Below, one piece after another: positions 4,215 to 25,292 of a DNA stretch of 64,000 nt. Origin of the DNA: Escherichia coli (lineage in GTDB: Bacteria > Pseudomonadota > Gammaproteobacteria > Enterobacterales > Enterobacteriaceae); the NCBI RefSeq assembly GCF_016903815.1, contig NZ_CP069973.1; one strand, written 5' to 3'. The notes beneath the pieces were generated by a model. It saw only the letters and a list, made by a program, of their open reading frames with translations. It was not told where the DNA came from and did not search any database. Positions within the stretch are counted from its first letter, which is position 1. Each line of letters starts with the position of its first letter. The translations under genes and the position numbers were made by a program.

Positions 4215-5105
4215 TCAGGCTGCCAGATCATCGTTTCCGATGGAAGCATAATAAGCTTTTTCTGCTTCTGCCGGAGGAGTATGGCCCAGCCTTCCCAGCA
4301 ATCGTCGATTGTTATACCAGTCCACCCACGTTAGTGTGGCCAGTTCCACTTCTGCACGGTTTTTCCAGCTCTTACGGTGTATTACCTCCGCTTTGTAAAG
4401 ACCATTGATGCTCTCAGCCATCGCGTTGTCATACGAGTCGCCTGTACTCCCTGTTGATGCCAGTAATCCGGCTTCTTTTAGTCGCTCCGTATAGGCCAGT
4501 GACACATACTGAGAGCCTTTATCGCTGTGATGGATGGTGCCAGACGGACGACGGGCCCACAACGCCTGCTCCAGCGCATCCAGCACGAATGTCGTTTCCA
4601 TAGACGATGAGACCCGCCACCCCACGATGTATCCGGCAAACACATCAATGATAAACGCCACATAGACGAAGCCCTGCCATGTGCTGACGTAAGTAAAATC
4701 AGCCACCCACAGCTGGTCAGGTCGTTCTGCCACGAACTGACGGTTTACGCGGTCGCCTGCGGCAACGGCTTTCCGGCTGATGGTCGTACGGACCTTTTTA
4801 CCCCGGAGAACACCGGCAAGTCCCATAACCGCCATGAGACGTGCCACTGTACATCTGGCCACCCTGATTCCTTCCCGTAACAACTGACGCCAGACTTTAC
4901 GCACACCGTACACCTGATGATTTTCATCGTATACGCGCTGTATCTCTCTCTTCAGCCAGTCGTCGTGCTGCGCACGGGCACTGCGTTTATCCGGATGATG
5001 TCGCTGTTGCTGACAATGGTAATACGTTGACGGGGCAATATGCAGTTCGCTGCATACCGGTCCGACCCCGTACTGCTCACGCAGCTTATCCAGCAGTGGC
5101 ATCAT
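4215..5105 (-). CDS. IS629-type transposase OrfB (DDE integrase core)
   Basis: 296-aa ORF with IS3-family DDE catalytic core (e.g. [16 protein letters not shown]). Confidence 0.9.
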
Positions 5106-16068: not shown

Positions 16069-16635
16069 TCAGAAGTGAGGCTTACGAGGACGCCCTGCAG
16101 CAGGTCGTTCAGGAACTTCACTGCAACCGTATGCGCACAGTCCGTCTTTTTGCTCTTCTTTCGCCAGATAATGCAGGACACCGCGAATATTATCGATGCT
16201 CCCGGGATCGTTATGACGCACGGGAATGTTGATGTTGTATGTATAATGCGGCTGATATGTACAGCGGTGTGCCGAACCGCTGTTATGCGTAATAGACTGC
16301 CAGCATTCCGTAATCCGCTCCGCAAAGGGATATATTTTTTTAACCCTCTGACGATCGAGCCAGAAAACCGCATGCGCATGAAAACCATGATCAGCCGTCC
16401 ATTCAATCACCCAGAAGAAACCAACGATATTTTCAAATTGTTCCACCTGCTCCAGCAGCATACGCAACTGCAATTCAAGCCAGCGATGATCAGGTTGTAA
16501 GAAATCAGGCGTATCTTTCCTGTAGAAGAAATCCATGCGTAAGGCCCGCAGGCGGGAATAGCGTGCGACCAACTGATTGATGTGATTGTCAAGTAAAGCG
16601 GTAAAAAACCAGTTTGGTGTGTAAGATTTAGGCAT
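16069..16635 (-). CDS. YagK/YfjJ-family (inovirus Gp2-like) protein, paralog
   Basis: 188-aa ORF sharing motifs with the 15239-15841 and 19308-20039 ORFs (e.g. HAHAVFWLDRQ vs HYHVILLLNKD). Confidence 0.55.
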   Translation of the reverse strand: MPKSYTPNWFFTALLDNHINQLVARYSRLRALRMDFFYRKDTPDFLQPDHRWLELQLRMLLEQVEQFENIVGFFWVIEWTADHGFHAHAVFWLDRQRVKKIYPFAERITECWQSITHNSGSAHRCTYQPHYTYNINIPVRHNDPGSIDNIRGVLHYLAKEEQKDGLCAYGCSEVPERPAAGRPRKPHF

Positions 16636-18128
16636 GCTGATGACTCCTGAAAGTTAATGACGTTTTAAGTGCTGTAAACGAATTAATGCTTTCGCTCATA
16701 ATCAGATCTAAAACGGTAATAACTTACAGACGGTATTTATCAGGCATGCTGTAACAGAATGGATACGTCGGTTATTAACGACACACAGCGTTGTGCTGAA
16801 GGGTATGAGTTATCTGATGGCATTGTCTATAGAGATGAGATAAACGAGGTGCGAAGAAAATACAGATTCAATACAACACAGTGAAATACAGAAAAATACG
16901 AACTGTAATCCCGCTGCCAGGCGGTTAGGAAACATATTACAACTATAAGCTCATGGTTTGTAAATTTGCTCTCAGTGAGTCTGAAAAAACGTTTATAAGG
17001 TCACCACAATAAACTCACACGCGCTTATTCAATCTGTTCTCCAGGATATGAACGTTAACGACACACGATAGCATAAGACAACATACAATGGATGAATAAT
17101 TTTCACCCAGTACCTTAAACAATACAACCGGCAACAAATATAATCAGAAATTCACTCTGTTAATTCTGTTGTTTATCCTGCGCTGTTAAACATGACGGAA
17201 CCATGGATACCTTATCAAAGAGTAAGCATTCAGTTAATCAGTAATGACAGAGAAATTGATGTTCACCAGAATAGTTAAAACACTTCAGATAAACAATCAT
17301 TGTTAAGCAAATACGGTTCATAATGGATAAATTAGAATCAATTACTGTTTTACTGAAGATGAGAATAGATGAATATCAACAATAGCGTAGTAGAGAATAA
17401 CTTACCTGAACATCATATGAGTTACAGTAGTTATGATTGAGGGATGGAGTGAATACGATAACAAGAGTAATACTAATGGAATGTGTAAAGATTGAGAGTG
17501 AGTGAAGACAGGAAGTAAATAACAATAGAGATTGTATGAAAAAGGGAGTGAATAAAGAATATATAAAGAATAAATATAATTATAGTAATAAACCTAAATT
17601 AAAATCATCCTTGTTTGATGAGTAAAAATAATTCTAGAAAATGAATCTGTCTGAAAACTCTTTCTCAGAGATTAACCGATCAGATGCTCAACGGACTCAA
17701 TAAATTGGCTGAGTCAGGTTACCTCATCCACACTCTATTTGTTTCTAGAAGGATCTACCATTTTGTTCATCTACCGGAACACATCAATTTAGTAACTCGA
17801 TAATATCGGTTATGTAGATATTTATCGTTGCTACCAATGCCTAGATTATTATTCTCCAAGTATTTTCTTGACTTACAGGCTAATTTTGAAACAAATGTCA
17901 TGCTATTTTAGGAAAAGAACCTATGCAAAAGTCTGCTATGAGCGAGGAGCAGATATTCATCTGGTATACAAAGACAATATCGCTTAAGTCATCAGTGCTG
18001 CCACTTTAACCACTAGCTCTGCTCTTTTTGGACTTTTGAGCTAAAAATTAAATCTGACAGTGTGATAAGGTGCAAGTTTCTGAAAATACGCCAGTTGTTT
18101 TACACTCAAAAGCCCCCATTACTATCTG

Positions 18129-18884
18129 ATGTTAATGGCGCAGCAGTTATCTTTCAGATTATTAAGGGGAAACAAGAGTATGGCAAGATGTACAGCTCCT
18201 GTACGTGGACATAGCTCAGCAGCAGCTGCTGCTGCCTGTCCCGCATGTCGTAATCGCAGTGGTTATCGCCGCAGTAGCTACAGTTATGATAGTTACCCTT
18301 CTTACTCATCAGGCTCTAGCGGTGGCGGAAGTTATGGAGGCAGTAGCGGTGGTTCCAGCAGCAGCGCGAAGCCACGTTGGTCAAAATCAGGGTCTTCCGT
18401 TTCTTACACAACAGCCCAAGTACAATCACTCACACCAATTCGACAAGCGGTAGAGAAACTTGCCATTGAGCAACCTGATCTGCGTGATGTCTTTCTTTGC
18501 CATGCTTGGGATGACCGACAAGGTATTGCCAAAGAGTTACACGATTTGCTCGAAGCGGCAGGTGTCAAAGTATGGTTCAGCGAAAAGGATCTTGCCCTTG
18601 GTGTTCCGATGATGCGTGCCATTGATAAAGGATTAGCAAACTCTCGAATCGGCTTGGTTTTAGTGACACCTGCATTGTTAAACCGTCTTCCTAAAGAAGG
18701 CGTTGCTGATAAAGAACTTTCCGCCTTACTGGCAGGCAACCAACTCGTTCCCATCGTGCATAACACGACGTATGAAGCTCTCCGTAATGTCAGTCCTTTG
18801 CTTGCATCCCGAAGCGGCCTCGACACGGGAGAAGATACATTGGCAGTTGTTGCAACAAAAATTGCAGAGCTGATCACTGTTTAG
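18129..18884 (+). CDS. TIR-domain protein with Ser/Gly/Tyr-rich low-complexity N-terminal region
   Basis: C-terminal ~140 aa DVFLCHAWDDRQGIAKELHDLLEAAGVKVWFSEKDLALGVPMMRAIDKGLANSRIGLVLVTPALL fits the TIR pattern; start codon uncertain (18129, 18135 or 18180). Confidence 0.75.
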   Translation: MLMAQQLSFRLLRGNKSMARCTAPVRGHSSAAAAAACPACRNRSGYRRSSYSYDSYPSYSSGSSGGGSYGGSSGGSSSSAKPRWSKSGSSVSYTTAQVQSLTPIRQAVEKLAIEQPDLRDVFLCHAWDDRQGIAKELHDLLEAAGVKVWFSEKDLALGVPMMRAIDKGLANSRIGLVLVTPALLNRLPKEGVADKELSALLAGNQLVPIVHNTTYEALRNVSPLLASRSGLDTGEDTLAVVATKIAELITV

Positions 18885-19307
18885 TTTATCCAAGCCACCG
18901 TTAAATATTTCCAGCTCATGAATCTGGTCTGCTATTGCAGGCCAGATATCAGTCAATACTGAAAGGTTTGACCTGCTCCCCGTTGATTAACATAGACTGA
19001 TATAGCAACTTCCGCTTTTGGCACAAAGCAGACCATGAGAAGATAGACGCTATAACATTTGAGTCCTACCAATCGATCTGTTCATTTCCATAAATGGCAG
19101 TAAATGCAAATAACCAGAACAGCCAGGCGCTTTTCGACTTATGGTCGATGTTGCAAAGAGTGAGGAGTGGAAAGCAAGCGTGCGAACGAAAGTAGATGGC
19201 AATCCATTGCATTACTTCAGGACGACTTTTCAGAAAGCGAGCTAAGGGCGTCAGCCAACGCCCTTACCGTGGCATAAGCTCAGGCACCGGATGCCGTTTT
19301 ACAGGGC

Positions 19308-20039
19308 TCACCTGCCATCCAGTAAACGCCCCGGCCCACGACTGCAACCATAATTACGTTGACCAGAACCGTCATGCTGCTTCGTCTCATACTTCACGAG
19401 ATAACAGGCTCTCTCCATGGCTTTCTGCATCGCTTCCACATCACCACGCTTGACCCAGAGCACAGCGGATCCACCAGATTTTTTGTCAGAAGCTTTCCGG
19501 GTATCAGAACATCCACCCGACAAAGGCGTATCATCGGAAGAAGGGCGAGCATCAGATGATGCCGGTTTACGGAAAGGCGTCCGCCTGGAAAAATGAACCA
19601 GTCCATTACCCTGCCAGGGTTCAAGATGCAGAGCGCTACACCATGCCAGCTTGATCAGCGTCGCCAGCGAAGAAGGAACGGTGAAATCCCCTAGCGAGCA
19701 CCAGGTATCTTTGTTGAGCAGTAATATCACGTGATAATGTTTCCTGCCTTTTTCCTTGCCAAACTCCCGACACCAGAAATAACGCAGAGTGGTTGCACGC
19801 ACACGCTTGTTGGCACGTCGTTTATGTCGCTGGTAAGCCTGAATTTTTGCTTTCAGGGATTCGAAAAAACGAGAAATCACCGCTGAATCCGAATCGGGAT
19901 CCATGATGGTGACAGGCATATACTCAGGGAAACGTAAATCCATCCGGATTAACGAGACGACACGGTGTTGCGCCAGGGCACTGTTGAGAATACTTTCAAA
20001 ACGGGATAACCAGTAAGCATTGTGTATTGGTTGATTCAT
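19308..20039 (-). CDS. YagK/YfjJ-family (inovirus Gp2-like) protein, paralog
   Basis: 243-aa ORF MNQPIHNAYWLSRFESILNSALAQHRVVSLIRMDLRFPEY... parallel to the two other paralogs. Confidence 0.6.
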   Translation of the reverse strand: MNQPIHNAYWLSRFESILNSALAQHRVVSLIRMDLRFPEYMPVTIMDPDSDSAVISRFFESLKAKIQAYQRHKRRANKRVRATTLRYFWCREFGKEKGRKHYHVILLLNKDTWCSLGDFTVPSSLATLIKLAWCSALHLEPWQGNGLVHFSRRTPFRKPASSDARPSSDDTPLSGGCSDTRKASDKKSGGSAVLWVKRGDVEAMQKAMERACYLVKYETKQHDGSGQRNYGCSRGPGRLLDGR

Positions 20040-21682
20040 GATGAGAGATCTCCGTTGATTTGGATTGACTTCACATCATTAATCACCGCGGTAAAACTTT
20101 ACGGCATCCCGCCATTGAGCAACGCCAATGGCTCCTGATTAAAACAGAATGAATCCCCCACGAAGAAAAAATAAACCTACACGCAGAGTAAAACACACAA
20201 CAACGGCATAAATGGTTTTTAAAAACTACAAAGCCTGAAGGGAAACGGATCCACAGAACGTGCAAACAAAACACCAAAAACGCAATCAGAACGCTTTCTG
20301 CTGCTGTGAATCAACAACAATACCAAAACCTACAGCTTAACCACAAAACTCAATCACAGAGCCGAATAGCGTGTTTAAAACCTGTTTACAGATAACCCTG
20401 CCACAAGAACAAAGTTCACCAATATCAGAATCGATTTTCTCATCCTGAAAATGTTACGTTTCACTACACAGCATAAAAACGATTAACTATTGATAACGTA
20501 AACCTCATCTGAATCAAAACACCAGAACCAATCATCACGCTTTTCCTGAAAAGAGCCTTGCGCTGAGAAAAAACACCAGGGTCAGTTAATCATCTCATCA
20601 ATCTCATCGTTACAAAAACATCCATAAAACCATTTAACAAAATCATCGTAAGCACACAGTAAATCACGCCAGGTTATCTCAGCCAAATTTTCGTTTTACA
20701 TAAAGACACTTGTCTCAGGTTAACGACTAAAAACACAAAAACTCAGAAAAGGTTAAACGTAACTTCAGAAAAATAGAATATCATATTGATTGCTTAAACA
20801 GGAAAGATTGTTTTGTAGTAGCATTAAGCTGATTTTAGTTAACGTAAAAACAGGACTGACAGGTTTACTAAACTGGATGTGTATCAGACAAAGCAATGTG
20901 TATAACAATACTTAATGAAAACACTTGTAGAATTGTTTATGAAAATACGTGTATGTCTGGTAAAACACTTAGTAGAAAATACGTGTATAACACTTACTGA
21001 AATGCTTAGTAAAAATACTTAGTAAAATATGTGTAGAATTATCTATTTAAAAAGATATGTATATAACACTTAATAAAAACATGTGTATATAGTATCATAC
21101 CGACATTCTCAACATCTTCAGACTTCCATACATACTGGGTGTTGATTTCTCACTTTTACAGCCAGCATGGAGTTTTCTGTCCTAAAAACAGAGCAGATTT
21201 ACTCTGGAATTATTTTTCTACCCCCGTATTTCAGGCCCCAGAAAAGACAATCCGAAGCAAACCGTTTGTCAGCCTCCATATCATCTTTTACCCCCGGAAA
21301 GTGATCGCGTTTACAACCAGAATGACAGCCATACTGATTATGTCGTCTCCCGGCCCCCTTCACATATAACATGCATGTCTGTCATTGCTTACTGCTCCAC
21401 ATGACCGGATTTCACATACAGGATGCACATTCAGTGTTTTTATCGCTACTATAACAGACAGATTACTGTCGTCTTTACTCTTCAGATTGTTAATCTGACC
21501 ACAAGAACAGCCGAACGGCAAAACGCCCTCCACAAGGGGCACATGAACCATAGTTGATAGCATGTTTTTCCTAATCAAGGAATAGTTCAGGAATATTTTA
21601 TTGCATTAATAACTGGCGAATAATCGTTCTGTGAACACAAAATGCTTTTATTTGTAAATTTTATTGCATTGCACTCGTTTTA

Positions 21683-22522
21683 TTGATATGGGGTTTAATA
21701 ACAGATAACCCGGAAAGAAGGAGAAAACAGATGACATTACGGATTAACGATCAGGGGCGAGATAAACAGAATCAATTTTTATCGAAAAATGGAGAAAATC
21801 TGAATTCGTTAAAATCGCGTCATGTGCAGGATAGGCATTTACCTGAATGGCTTAAGGATAAAGTTGCAGCATTCTGGTTTTGTCTGGTGATAAAGGATAT
21901 GAAAGTGTCAGGGAGCAGTTACTATGAACTTACCATGCAACTTCCCACTTCTGAAGAATCTGTTTGCATCAGTAAGCTGTCATCCTCAACCCATGAGATT
22001 CGGCTGGAGATCATCAGGCGATGGATTGATAGTGTAGCGCAGATAGAAACGGAAGCTTTTACTAAAAATCTCGTTGATGCCATCTATAAAAACTGGAAGG
22101 AAATCGGGAACAAAAACCAGGCCACATGGCTTAAAAAAAATCCGGAACAACTCGAGTGGGCATGGAAATATATTAACATTCGTATTCCCGAGTCACATTT
22201 AACCTGGTTTTGCCCCGTCAATAACGAAGAGAAACGCATTGCCATCTTAGCATTGCTTAAAATACTGTATCCCGGAGATATACCATGCCAGTACAACGAC
22301 AAAGAGTTTCATGTCGGGATCTGCGCTGAAGAACATTTTTACAGAAGAATGCACGACGCTTTCAGAAAACAGTTTATCGACGGGAAAAAAGATAAACGGG
22401 TACAAATTAACGTAAAGATATCACCGTCCGCAAAAAGCGCTCTGGACAGACTGACCAGAGCGAGGAAAACAACACAGCAGGCTATTCTGGAACAACTGAT
22501 TCTGAACGGTAGACTGGATTAA
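21683..22522 (+). CDS. Hypothetical protein (no recognisable domain; possible ribbon-helix-helix-like C-terminus)
   Basis: 279-aa ORF; likely true start at MTLRINDQ (21731); function unknown. Confidence 0.5.
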   Translation: MIWGLITDNPERRRKQMTLRINDQGRDKQNQFLSKNGENLNSLKSRHVQDRHLPEWLKDKVAAFWFCLVIKDMKVSGSSYYELTMQLPTSEESVCISKLSSSTHEIRLEIIRRWIDSVAQIETEAFTKNLVDAIYKNWKEIGNKNQATWLKKNPEQLEWAWKYINIRIPESHLTWFCPVNNEEKRIAILALLKILYPGDIPCQYNDKEFHVGICAEEHFYRRMHDAFRKQFIDGKKDKRVQINVKISPSAKSALDRLTRARKTTQQAILEQLILNGRLD

Positions 22523-23520
22523 CTTTCACTACTTCCACTCCTGGCAGTTTTCCTCTTTTTGTAGTGTCTCCCGGCTGCAGGCATCAGGTACTTTTCCGTC
22601 ATTTCGTTGCAGAACTCTTCAATGTAGTTAATCAGCTTCTGGTGTGCTTTCACCTTTTCTTCCCCGGGGGACGCTTTCAGATAAATGTCCTCCTTTTCCA
22701 CAAGTGTATTTATAAACTCTCCCGGACATCCCTGGTTATAAAGCAACGTGAAAAACAACACATTCCCCAGTCTCTCCAGTAACTGCGATTTAACCCTGTA
22801 TTGTTGTTTGCTGAGGATTGATTGTTTTATAAAGCTTAGTCTTGTTAAAAGTTGTTCAAATCCCGGTTCCAGTTTAAAAACAGATTTTAATACCAGGGAC
22901 TGATACTCCTGATAAAAAAGTTCAAACGTCGGGGATGCAGACTGACGAACAGATTTGGCTACAACCCATGGACTAAATCCCATGATTGGGATTTCCTTCG
23001 CTCCCTCCAGCGCACTCAGAGGTAGTCCAGCAATCCATGCGTCCAGCTTAGCCGAATCAATATCCCCGCTCAAAACCTCATACAAACTGCCCGTGAACGG
23101 TTGAGTCGGTTTTTTTGTTGTTTTACCTTCTGATTGCCTGAATCCATCCACTTTTCTCCGGATATTACGCGGAATCAGCATAAAAGGCGGGACATTAAGT
23201 GATAAACGTTTACCCGTCATACGATACCAGTGGCCCACCTCAACCTTAATCCGTGTATCTGGCCTTGTATCTGGCCTTGTATCTGGCCTTAGCTCAAGTG
23301 CTATTATGTTAAGCAGGTACAGATAACGCACCGTATAACAGTCAAAATGTTTCTCCGGATCAAACGGCTCTGATCGTTCTCTGCACACAAGTCCGCTGCG
23401 CTTCAGTATTCGCTGGGTATCTTTCCAGGCCTTACTCTGAAGAATGGTGGTAACTCTGGCTTTATTAGCAATCTCACGCAGCGCATCACTTTGTTGTGCC
23501 GTCATCTCTTCCCTCCACAC
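22519..23520 (-). CDS. Hypothetical protein containing in-frame tandem repeat (RPDT)x3, divergent from GTPase gene
   Basis: 333-aa ORF; 12-bp tandem repeat at ~23255-23292; function unknown. Confidence 0.55.
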   Translation of the reverse strand: MWREEMTAQQSDALREIANKARVTTILQSKAWKDTQRILKRSGLVCRERSEPFDPEKHFDCYTVRYLYLLNIIALELRPDTRPDTRPDTRIKVEVGHWYRMTGKRLSLNVPPFMLIPRNIRRKVDGFRQSEGKTTKKPTQPFTGSLYEVLSGDIDSAKLDAWIAGLPLSALEGAKEIPIMGFSPWVVAKSVRQSASPTFELFYQEYQSLVLKSVFKLEPGFEQLLTRLSFIKQSILSKQQYRVKSQLLERLGNVLFFTLLYNQGCPGEFINTLVEKEDIYLKASPGEEKVKAHQKLINYIEEFCNEMTEKYLMPAAGRHYKKRKTARSGSSES

Positions 23521-23611
23521 TTTGTCACTCCAGATTTTTTCACGTCCATATTACCTGAATGATAAACCGGATTAGTGTGATCCGGTTCAGCGAAATCAAC
23601 AGGATACCGGT

Positions 23612-24496
23612 ATGTCATTCAGCCATTCTTCCCTCTCTGCACAAGTGAAATCATATCTGACGTTTCTTCCTGAAGAAATTCGCCAGAAAATCCTTGAACA
23701 TCTCCACGGTGTTATTCATTACGAGCCCGTGATTGGCATTATGGGTAAATCCGGCACAGGCAAAAGCAGCCTGTGTAATGCCATTTTTCAGTCCCGTATC
23801 TGCGCCACGCATCCCCTGAACGGCTGCACCCGCCAGGCTCATCGTCTTACCCTGCAGCTCGGTGAACGCAGAATGACGCTGGTCGATCTGCCCGGCATTG
23901 GTGAAACACCGCAGCATGATCAGGAATACCGGACACTTTATCGTCAGCTGCTACCGGAACTGGATCTGATTATCTGGATCCTACGGGCTGATGAACGTGC
24001 GTATGCTGCCGATATTGCCATGCATCAGTTTTTACTGAATGAAGGTGCAGATCCCTCGCGTTTTCTGTTTGTTCTCAGCCATGCCGATCGCGTGTTTCCT
24101 GCTGAAGAATGGAACGACACAGAAAAATGCCCGTCCCGTCAGCAGGCGCTCTCACTGGCGACGGTGACAGCCCGGGTGGCAACCCTGTTCCCTTCATCAT
24201 TTCCGGTACTCTCCGTTGCTGCACCTGTCGGCTGGAACCTTCCGGCGTTTGTGTCGCTGATGATCCACGCACTGCCACCACAGGCAACCAGCGCGGTGTA
24301 TTCACATATCCGGGGAGAAAACCGCTCTGAACAGGCCCAGAAACACGCACAACAGACTTTTGGTGACGCCATCGGGAAAAGCTTTGACGCTGCCGTTGTC
24401 CGGTTCAGTTTTCCGGCCTGGATGTTACAGCTTCTCCGTAAAGCCCGGGACCGCATTATCCACCTGCTGGTCACACTGTGGGATCGTCTGTTCTGA
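23612..24496 (+). CDS. YeeP/YkfA-family GTPase (cryptic-prophage type)
   Basis: 294-aa ORF with P-loop GIMGKSGTGKSS and G-domain motif DLPG. Confidence 0.8.
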   Translation: MSFSHSSLSAQVKSYLTFLPEEIRQKILEHLHGVIHYEPVIGIMGKSGTGKSSLCNAIFQSRICATHPLNGCTRQAHRLTLQLGERRMTLVDLPGIGETPQHDQEYRTLYRQLLPELDLIIWILRADERAYAADIAMHQFLLNEGADPSRFLFVLSHADRVFPAEEWNDTEKCPSRQQALSLATVTARVATLFPSSFPVLSVAAPVGWNLPAFVSLMIHALPPQATSAVYSHIRGENRSEQAQKHAQQTFGDAIGKSFDAAVVRFSFPAWMLQLLRKARDRIIHLLVTLWDRLF

Positions 24497-24614
24497 GCGC
24501 CCCGGAGTCCCCCGTGGCAACCGTATACCTTTACACGACAACGGATTACGGTAACCACTGCCGTATACCGTCTGTCATTATCAATAACACGCTCTTTAAT
24601 TTCAGAGGTCAGTC

Positions 24615-25292
24615 ATGAATACCAGAATTCTTTTTCCCCTGCTGTTCACTGTGGCATCCTTCTCCGCCTCCGCCGGCAACTGGGCTGTCAAAAACGGCTG
24701 GTGTCAGACCATGACGGAAGATGGTCAGGCACTGGTAATGCTGAAAAATGGCACGATTGGTATTACCGGCCTGATGCAGGAATGCCCGAATGGCGTACAG
24801 ACGCTCCTGGGCAGCCGTATCAGTATTAACGGTAACCTGATCCCCACATCACAAATGTGTAATCAGCAGACGGGATTCAGGGCTGTTGAGGTGGAAGTCG
24901 GACAGGCGCCGGAAATGGTCAAAAAAGCCGTTCACTCCATAGCAGAGCGTGATGTGTCCGTTTTACAGGCATTTGGTGTACGAATGGAATTCACCCGCGG
25001 TGATATGCTGAAGGTCTGTCCGAAATTTGTCACATCACTTGCCGGTTTTTCCCCGAAACAGACACCCGCCATTAATAAAGATTCCGTCCTGCAGGCTGCC
25101 CGGCAGGCATACGCCCGGGAATATGACGAGGAAACAACAGAAACCGCTGATTTTGGCTCTTACGAAGTAAAAGGCAATAAGGTTGAGTTTGAAGTGTTCA
25201 ATCCTGAAGACCGTGCGTACGACAAAGTGACCGTCACGGTTGGTGCTGACGGTAATGCCACCGGTGCCAGCGTTGAATTTATCGGAAAATAG
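24615..25292 (+). CDS. Secreted hypothetical protein (signal peptide)
   Basis: 225-aa ORF with N-terminal signal peptide [20 protein letters not shown]; no recognised domain. Confidence 0.5.

Follow-up and report, generated by a model that had tools for sequence, protein, structure and literature searches.

What is the function of the 1.6 kb of DNA that separates, on a pathogenicity island of Escherichia coli, a gene of the YagK/YfjJ family from a divergently oriented gene for a 263-aa protein? The stretch in question, called the gap here, covers positions 20040-21680 of 64,000 nt of contig NZ_CP069973.1, and these 64,000 nt are referred to as the window. The window DNA is 100% identical to strain 222 (NZ_CP020516.1), and its pathogenicity island also bears the kps capsule genes. 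The initial annotation of the window had found no convincing open reading frame (ORF) in the gap, and we agree: the longest ORFs within 20040-21680 reach at most 76 aa, and the RefSeq annotation of the strain 222 record is empty between the gene for the 243-aa YagK/YfjJ protein and that for the 263-aa protein. Comparison of sequences leads us to propose, at about even chances, that the gap acts in cis as origin and control region for an island module resembling a rolling-circle plasmid. Its most conserved and most informative feature is a bipartite core made up of a box and the sequence ACTCTGRWRTTA (motif ii), at 21088-21212, just beyond the short motifs to which the initial annotation had drawn attention.

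Of 5426 complete E. coli genomes, 1878 have DNA similar to the gap, nearly always on the chromosome and at as many as 8 sites in one genome. Matches among plasmid records number 4, all from E. coli, and 50,697 phage records searched with the gap region gave none; on these two counts a phage origin or satellite was rejected as an explanation of the gap.

The core is tied in position and orientation to the gene of the candidate nickase, as the YagK/YfjJ protein is called below. The comparison set consisted of 75 loci encoding relatives of this protein, drawn from one-genome-per-species collections. Motif ii (12 nt, ACTCTG[AG]W[AG]TTA) lies upstream of the YagK/YfjJ-type gene in 57 of the 75, invariably on the same strand and within 150-1300 nt of the Rep-like gene (usually 200-600 nt; 1162 nt in the window), and about 20 one-mismatch matches are found in the remaining ~1.1 Mb of the locus set. 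The 57 loci belong to Enterobacterales, Vibrio, Aeromonas, Tolumonas, Marinomonas, and Alcaligenaceae. In the cross-genus alignment the box (ATATTACTATACCGACA) stands ~80-105 nt before motif ii; ~18 nt of it, including ACCGACA, are kept from Beta- to Gammaproteobacteria, and TATAAT-like hexamers are contained in it in most genera. Box and motif ii are also among the most conserved blocks within the E. coli variants. When IMG/VR was scanned by DNA pattern alone, three loci were returned, and all three adjoin a Rep-like gene. The orientation of the core relative to the nickase gene is constant, be the other neighbour a divergent gene for a ribbon-helix-helix (RHH) protein or a co-directional yfjI-type gene; the core thus belongs with the nickase gene and not with the neighbour. 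Island variants of E. coli lose their homology to one another 3-10 nt past motif ii (megablast ends at query positions 1176-1183), and recombination at nick sites is known to give rise to mosaic replicons (PMC5714925).

Both cryptic prophages CP4-57 and CP4-6 of E. coli K-12 carry box and motif ii, upstream of yfjJ (ACTCTTAAATTA, -117) and yagK (ACTCTGCAATTA, -250), respectively; the spacer between the two is shorter there, ~45-60 nt (yfjI-yfjJ gap in locus L088; yagK-yagL gap in locus L089). Motif ii resembles the gene-A origin of phiX174, CAACTTGATATTAATAAC, the sequence of which was verified in phiX174 (4299-4328) and in G4. The box brings to mind the nonanucleotide TAATATT^AC of CRESS-DNA (circular, Rep-encoding, single-stranded DNA) viruses. 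An intrinsic terminator at 21189-21217 was considered and rejected: its stem is weak and is lost in one locus (L003, E1), and other genera have no T-run.

The product of the leftward gene is predicted to have an HUH-nuclease fold, Rep- or parvovirus-NS1-like. Its motifs are intact [I, RMDLRFP; II (HUH), HYHVILLLN; III, YLVK(YETK)] and stand in the order of Rep proteins, HUH before Tyr; only the first Tyr of YLVKY is kept across the YagK/YfjJ family, which is Y1-like in this respect, and the Pfam family REP_ORF2-G2P links it to phage initiators. No sequence relatives of the nickase were found in the PDB or in NCBIfam, and profile searches matched no other Rep families near the gap. Many E. coli homologues (P0044, P0068, and many 214-aa cluster representatives) are frameshifted after a low-complexity insert and have no YxxK, so that many island copies of the nickase are probably dead. 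The searched literature holds no description of the box/motif ii element and no function for YagK/YfjJ proteins; a study of jumbo-phage transduction lists an 'inovirus Gp2-like protein' as a core gene of Pseudomonas islands and gives no role for it.

On the other side of the gap, the gene described as unknown in the initial annotation encodes a CopG-like DNA-binding protein. The C-terminal ~40 residues of the 263-aa product form a CopG-like RHH domain (RVQINVKISPSAKSALDRLTRARKTTQQAILEQLIL), and this tail is common to the syntenic divergent gene in many genera. Twenty RHH tails were searched; 12 match Pfam RHH_1 (best 1e-5) and 12 match RepB-RCR_reg (best 7.5e-6), the family of CopG-type regulators of rolling-circle plasmids. 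Against the PDB, the tail profile retrieved SIRV 56B, CopG, and the RHH domain of MatP; in an AlphaFold2 model residues 220-259 form an extended segment and two helices, with predicted local distance difference test (pLDDT) values >90. At full length the protein has no family match, and its N-terminal helical domain is without known relatives. Providencia, Proteus, and Morganella share the arrangement nickase, intergenic region, RHH protein, YfjP-type GTPase.

The imperfect copies of short motifs that the initial annotation reported at ~20860-21100 are indeed there and make up an array of direct repeats; the irregular spacing ascribed to them gives way to a period of ~12-13 nt, with autocorrelation peaks at lags 12, 24, and 37 (z = 2.4, 4.7, and 2.9) and a 13-nt period in Tandem Repeats Finder (unit AAAATACTTAGTA, 5.2 copies at 20962-21027, 67% matches). 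Units are of two types, A (AAAAYACTTAGTA) and B (AAATRYGTGTAT), which alternate to give a composite unit of 24-25 nt. A-type units (AYACTTAGTA) start at 20908, 20921, 20965, 20990, 21002, 21015, and 21066; B-type units (ATRYGTGTAT) at 20877, 20896, 20945, 20979, 21027, 21055, and 21079. The B regular expression has 8 matches across the 64 kb, every one within the array. Between 20870 and 21095 there are 186 direct 11-mer pairs with at most 2 mismatches, compared with 24.7±9.4 (maximum 57) in 300 dinucleotide-preserving shuffles of the same 226 nt, so the array is not explained by AT-rich composition, the explanation that the initial annotation had wished to see checked. For inverted pairs there is no such excess (20, with 37.7 expected), and the repeats share one orientation. 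At 29% GC the array is the most AT-rich part of the region. Its 3' end falls exactly at the box, with which the final B unit overlaps; it lies on the nickase side of the core, ~640 nt from the RHH gene. All 12 E. coli variants compared have it, in lengths of 130-247 nt, blocks of 12, 24, 35, and 52 nt having been gained or lost; the array of the window is the longest, with an additional 52-nt block at 21025-21076.

The array was rightly set apart from clustered regularly interspaced short palindromic repeats (CRISPR), as its units are 12-13 nt long, degenerate, and contiguous where a CRISPR array has near-identical repeats of 23-50 nt and unique spacers. The suggestion of an iteron or regulator-binding array survives in part. 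The context of an HUH nickase gene, an RHH gene, and a conserved core fits it; a classical set of theta-type iterons is a different matter, since the units are short and degenerate and the Rep belongs to the HUH class, and the conserved 17-22-bp iterons, the ~22-bp spacing, and the winged-helix initiator of such origins are all missing.

Related arrays of AAAAYACTNNGT units (3-6 copies, 11-12-nt period) stand directly upstream of the RHH gene in Providencia (AAACACTACGT AAAATACTATGT ... AAAAAATACTACGT-GGAG-ATG), Proteus, Morganella, Brenneria, and Tolumonas (AAAACACTTGA x3-5), and the E. coli units are homologous to them in equal orientation. Direct repeats are significant upstream of the RHH gene in ~10 of 24 loci (z = 2.4-9.6). 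Two betaproteobacterial loci have another repeat, (T)ATAGTT(C), together with another ribbon strand (TNISLS in place of LNTYIS); ribbon strand and repeat unit would thus covary (LNTYIS with AAAAYACT, TNISLS with ATAGTT), a small hint from two groups. At the position of the E. coli array, Proteus has a 27-nt duplication. In Limnobaculum eriocheiris (L019) a 36-nt unit is repeated five times (TTAATACTAACACTCTATTTATTAGTATTAATATTA), abutting the box ~281-470 nt upstream of the Rep-like gene, and in another locus (L081) GGTCGTA occurs four times near the RHH gene. Tandem expansions at the E. coli array position arose independently in Limnobaculum and Proteus, and the array is a lineage-specific expansion, not a universal part of the system. 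An array made of iterated box half-sites in all genera was considered and is not supported (13 matches, 9.8 expected).

According to the model that we favour, the module would consist of the HUH Rep-type nickase (YagK/YfjJ) encoded leftward, the divergently encoded protein with the CopG-like RHH tail, the bipartite core (box, spacer of ~95 nt, motif ii), and arrays in which a direct repeat of 11-13 nt, AAAAYAC(T)NNGT, recurs. The nickase would take the core as its binding and nicking site, as in a plasmid double-strand origin or an origin of transfer (oriT), and would cut one strand. The array would be coated cooperatively by about one dimer per helical turn, most likely of the RHH protein or, alternatively, of the nickase itself; the coating would set the expression of the divergent genes and/or help to melt and present the adjoining AT-rich core. 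In the E. coli subfamily with the 243-aa nickase, slippage would have expanded the repeats into an array of 130-247 bp plus ~700 bp of decayed A/C-rich copies, and it is this expansion that would have displaced the core 1.16 kb from the nickase gene. The nicking, the choice of the motif that is cut, the binder of the array, and an outcome in replication or in mobilisation are what we infer here. A double-strand origin is composed of a site for binding and one for nicking; rolling-circle replication from oriT is known for integrative and conjugative elements (ICEs), as is relaxase activity for plasmid Reps (PMC5714925), and replication and mobilisation of the island are therefore both conceivable.

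As in double-strand origins, an HUH initiator gene with intact motifs I-III adjoins the gap and a conserved short sequence is linked to the rep gene; a stable inverted repeat that would expose the nick sequence in its loop or flank, a usual though not universal trait of such origins, was not consistently seen. Direct repeats near the candidate nick locus are present in E. coli (20877-21091) and in the Limnobaculum locus and are not general. Several observations weigh against an origin of this kind. DNA folding gave no consistent stable hairpin at motif ii (mean z -0.2) or at the box (mean z 0.06), for which reason a nick site in a hairpin loop was rejected; hairpins at the candidate nick region occur in subgroups only (e.g., GGTATAT-TAC-ATATACC). 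The box could plausibly serve as a -10 element whichever strand is read, frameshifted copies of the E. coli nickase gene are numerous, and the Gp2-like protein appears in the searched literature only as an uncharacterised core gene. As to the array, direct repeats beside the box are not general across genera (the 13 matches against 9.8 expected); AAAAYACT arrays of other genera lie on the RHH side of the core, and that of E. coli on the nickase side; E. coli variants without the RHH gene (042 type, L084-L087) retain the array; and two E. coli types of RHH protein, differing in their ribbon strands, go with one shared array.

Four known systems invite comparison. With the pMV158-type double-strand origin and its CopG/RepB cassette, the island module shares an HUH initiator gene beside the cis site, a site split into two loci (the nic and bind loci of pMV158 are ~84 bp apart), direct repeats at about one helical turn, and a CopG-family RHH protein (RHH_1, RepB-RCR_reg, and CopG in the PDB). 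In the pMV158 type the RHH regulator is encoded in a copG-repB operon; in the islands it is the tail of a divergently encoded protein of 260-330 aa. The island module further differs in its location on chromosomal islands of 20-100 kb and not on small plasmids, in candidate nick sites without a consistent hairpin, and in a much larger, lineage-specific array of 14-17 units; a single-strand origin was not recognised in it. The gene A origin of phiX174 and G4 (CAACTTG^ATATTAATAAC) has a cleavage region that ACTCTGATATTA/ACTCTGGAATTA of the island resembles, needs no hairpin, and is linked through its initiator (Pfam REP_ORF2-G2P); it lies inside gene A, whereas the island element is intergenic, 0.2-1.2 kb upstream. 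The phage protein gpA uses two tyrosines, whereas the island family is Y1-like, and the likeness is a resemblance between short motifs.

Origins of transfer with an RHH accessory protein (TraY, TrwA, NikA, MbeC) likewise consist of an AT-rich region between divergent genes with the nickase on one side, an RHH partner, whose gene stands beside the site in the island too, repeats near a conserved short sequence, and antirestriction and RadC 'leading' genes opposite. The island nickase, however, has the motif order and fold of a Rep and is not a MOB-family relaxase, in which the Tyr is N-terminal to the His motif; no consistent inverted repeat stands beside the candidate nic site; and no gene for a coupling protein or a type IV secretion system is annotated within the island part examined. 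The RHH-bound centromere and operator arrays (parC of ParR, omega heptads, the CopG operator) share with the gap tandem direct repeats in one orientation at about a helical turn per unit (12-13 nt here), an adjoining RHH gene, and a variable copy number. They differ in that the island has no ParM/ParA-type ATPase, its syntenic NTPase being a YfjP/Era-like GTPase, and in that the E. coli array is remote from the RHH gene and is kept where this gene is missing; an array at the promoter of the RHH gene itself is seen in Providencia, Proteus, Morganella, Brenneria, and Tolumonas, and not in E. coli.

A purely transcriptional role is possible, if somewhat doubtful when taken alone. The gap would then be a divergent promoter/operator region without any cleavage, with the box as -10 element or start (of the rightward operon or, on the other strand, of the nickase gene), motif ii as an operator, and the array as autoregulatory RHH operators, possibly subject to the silencing of AT-rich island DNA by H-NS. 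The only sigma-70-like site that a promoter scan detected in 19900-21800 is on the + strand (-35 at 21070-21075, -10 at 21093-21098) and overlaps the box, which contains TATAAT-like hexamers in most genera, and this makes the promoter/operator explanation, alone or combined with an origin, a strong rival. The arrays of other genera abut the ribosome-binding site of the RHH gene, the classic position for autorepression of the CopG or omega type, and the E. coli array is the most AT-rich DNA of the region. However, the ~18 nt of the box, including an ACCGACA outside the hexamers, are kept from Beta- to Gammaproteobacteria, beyond the usual conservation of promoters; the core follows the nickase gene in orientation even beside a yfjI-type gene and hence does not serve as promoter of the neighbour; the distance between core and nickase start exceeds 1 kb in E. 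coli, and the best-conserved block is a separate one of 72 nt beside that start; and the homology breakpoint after motif ii is left unexplained. Such a promoter is, moreover, compatible with an overlapping origin and does not exclude it. A small or counter-transcribed RNA is very unlikely. It would run for ~100 nt from a promoter at the box to motif ii and regulate the nickase gene as the counter-transcribed RNAs of rolling-circle plasmids do; the promoter-like site (21070-21098), the weak hairpin with a T-run at 21189-21217 on the same + strand, and the complementarity that such a transcript would have to any long leader of the nickase gene speak for it. Yet the gap matches no Rfam family, RNAalifold found 0 conserved pairs in 14 diverse box-to-motif ii sequences, folding energies around motif ii are no better than those of shuffles, a T-run after motif ii is missing in most genera, and the probes for PapR and C271 have no match in the window.

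Recognition in trans is unlikely as well. According to a 2026 preprint (10.64898/2026.01.13.699239), oriTs without a relaxase, with anti-defence genes nearby, are found on many pathogenicity islands of E. coli. The core or another part of the gap would act as an oriT mimic that a relaxase from a helper ICE or plasmid recognises (as proposed for 'iOriT' islands), with the local HUH protein irrelevant or decayed; the many frameshifted HUH genes and the antirestriction genes downstream of the gap agree with this. The location and shared orientation of the core with YagK/YfjJ genes across genera nevertheless point to a cognate, cis-encoded partner, and the 4 E. coli plasmid records are the only matches among plasmids and phages. 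The module of the PIME preprint is different from that of the gap and was set aside. That the array might be a functionless minisatellite, slippage-prone AT-rich DNA expanded beside the core and tolerated there, is improbable. Array lengths between 130 and 247 nt, degenerate units (67% matches), the absence of an array at this position in most other genera, and ~700 flanking nt that resemble decayed copies would suit it, but retained array columns are 82-97% identical between variants, compared with 78-90% in neighbouring non-coding DNA, the same unit recurs in arrays of distant genera despite unalignable surroundings, and all units have one orientation. The minus strand of 20878-21090 has six matches to TTWTNCACA with at most 1 mismatch (TTATACACA being perfect), all in one orientation, where the window-wide density predicts ~0.24; these DnaA-box-like 9-mers are the reverse complements of B units. 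A theta-type origin or DnaA-titrating site, in which the A units would be 13-mer AT-rich unwinding repeats, could be read from them, from the 13-nt tandem period, and from the 29% GC, and we consider it highly improbable. The B units are mutual copies, and this alone gives rise to the cluster; homologous units elsewhere (AAAATACTACGT) are not DnaA boxes; no winged-helix initiator of the iteron type is encoded nearby, and the Rep is of the HUH class; and the likeness was noticed post hoc among several motifs considered.

The coordinates of the core, the array, and the surrounding features are collected in Table 1.

Table 1 Features of the gap and its flanks, in window positions; strand is left empty where none applies.
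Feature	Position	Strand	Remarks
YagK/YfjJ ('inovirus Gp2 family') gene, 243 aa	19308..20039	-	Candidate HUH Rep-type nickase
Block directly upstream of the Rep-like start	20040..20111		Column conservation 0.95-0.98 (12 variants); best kept block
A/C-rich, strand-asymmetric stretch with dispersed AAAACAC(C) units	20100..20760	+	GC skew to -0.39, AT skew +0.42
Direct-repeat array, ~14-17 degenerate units, 12-13-nt period	20877..21091	+	~17 standard deviations above shuffles
Box TATAGTATCATACCGACA	21088..21105	+	E. coli form of cross-genus ATATTACTATACCGACA; within conserved block 21083-21115
Spacer, 95 nt	21106..21200		Length kept (~80-105 nt in most genera), sequence not kept
Motif ii ACTCTGGAATTA (consensus ACTCTGRWRTTA)	21201..21212	+	Candidate nick or recognition sequence
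Variable leader/promoter region of the RHH gene	21220..21730	+	Covaries with downstream gene type
263-aa gene, C-terminal RHH domain	21731..22522	+	Divergent from nickase gene; 279-aa ORF if an upstream TTG start is used
YfjP/YeeP-type GTPase gene	23612..24496	+	In synteny with the RHH gene across genera

The backbone that E. coli variants share extends from 20040 to ~21218, and 21220-21680 varies with the downstream gene. Among the 12 variants the best-conserved blocks are 20040-20111, 20501-20544, 20742-20803, 20864-20881, 21083-21115, and 21194-21216; the first of these is presumed to be the 5' untranslated region or proximal control region of the Rep-like gene. In the A/C-rich stretch, into which repeat families D4 and D10 fall, the units probably represent decayed copies of the array unit: between 20190 and 21018 exact AAAAYAC occurs 10 times on the + strand and 0 times on the - strand, and the whole window has 45 copies where 24 are expected. 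In some relatives (L002, L003, and L086, positions 2605-2853, corresponding to ~20144-20392 of the window) this A/C-rich part bears the annotation of a 'hypothetical protein' of 82 aa (WP_000573217.1 and related proteins); it was rejected as a gene, since indels of 11 and 12 nt and an early stop break the frame in the window, and with its low complexity it is probably a spurious gene call.

Just upstream of the RHH gene an exact 13-nt direct repeat, ATTTTATTGCATT, is found at 21595-21607 and 21658-21670, 63 nt apart, and the pair may be a proximal operator separate from the large array; the motif TTATTGCA also stands upstream of a 25%-identical RHH gene in L003. The single sigma-70-like match in 19900-21800 compares with 6.2±1.9 in shuffles, despite the low G+C. 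The covariance models of Rfam 15 gave no match in 20040-21680 at E<=1, and within 17000-25000 one sub-threshold match (PhotoRC-I), inside the Rep-like gene. The small RNAs PapR and C271 of uropathogenic E. coli were rejected as candidates; their primer and probe sequences (PMC4546395) have no match in the window at up to 4 mismatches, and the two RNAs lie elsewhere in the genome.

Beyond the RHH gene, a 333-aa ORF at 22519-23520 (-) overlaps its stop by 4 nt, has a tandem RPDT x3 peptide repeat, and matches no family in Pfam, PHROGs, or NCBIfam; distantly similar ORFs of 376-407 aa take its place where the RHH gene is missing. After the GTPase gene come DUF905, DUF932, antirestriction, RadC, and CbeA/CbtA genes, which together resemble a plasmid leading region in content; the antirestriction and RadC genes are on the far side of the gap from the nickase gene, the side that matches the definition of the leading region for plasmids and islands (bioRxiv 10.64898/2026.01.13.699239). 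On the nickase side, a TIR-domain protein with a Ser/Gly-rich N-terminus (18180-18884, +; Pfam TIR_2, 3e-15) is encoded between two Rep-like genes and is a candidate defence gene in a cargo slot. A second AT-rich, ORF-poor stretch of ~1.5 kb (16636-18179) lies upstream of a YagK/YfjJ paralog (16069-16635, -). It has a small cluster of AAATAC-type repeats at 16857-16905 and a weak pair of box-like (17581) and motif-ii-like (~17664) sequences ~85 nt apart; the search of 16636-18179 for homologues of array and core gave such weak look-alikes and no clear one, and the architecture may be repeated there in degenerate form.

More broadly, and as a tentative proposal, E. coli islands of the CP4-57/pheV type, those of K-12 with yfjJ and yagK among them, and their relatives in Gamma- and Betaproteobacteria may carry a so far undescribed rolling-circle module, in which YagK/YfjJ would nick the core and the RHH protein, together with the YfjP-type GTPase, would coat the arrays; the excised island would replicate as a circle that generates single strands and/or be passed to a helper, either a conjugative element or a filamentous phage, and the genes for antirestriction, RadC, and toxin-antitoxin systems would be the first to enter. 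The box and motif ii are a concrete non-coding feature that can be annotated in thousands of genomes, and with a candidate nickase, a candidate core of ~125 bp, and a candidate binding partner the question is open to direct experiments. The module could explain how such E. coli pathogenicity islands, which bear capsule, adhesin, toxin-antitoxin, and defence genes, copy or move, and, if true, would provide a mechanism of mobility or maintenance for a very large class of pathogenicity and defence islands that has so far been without one.

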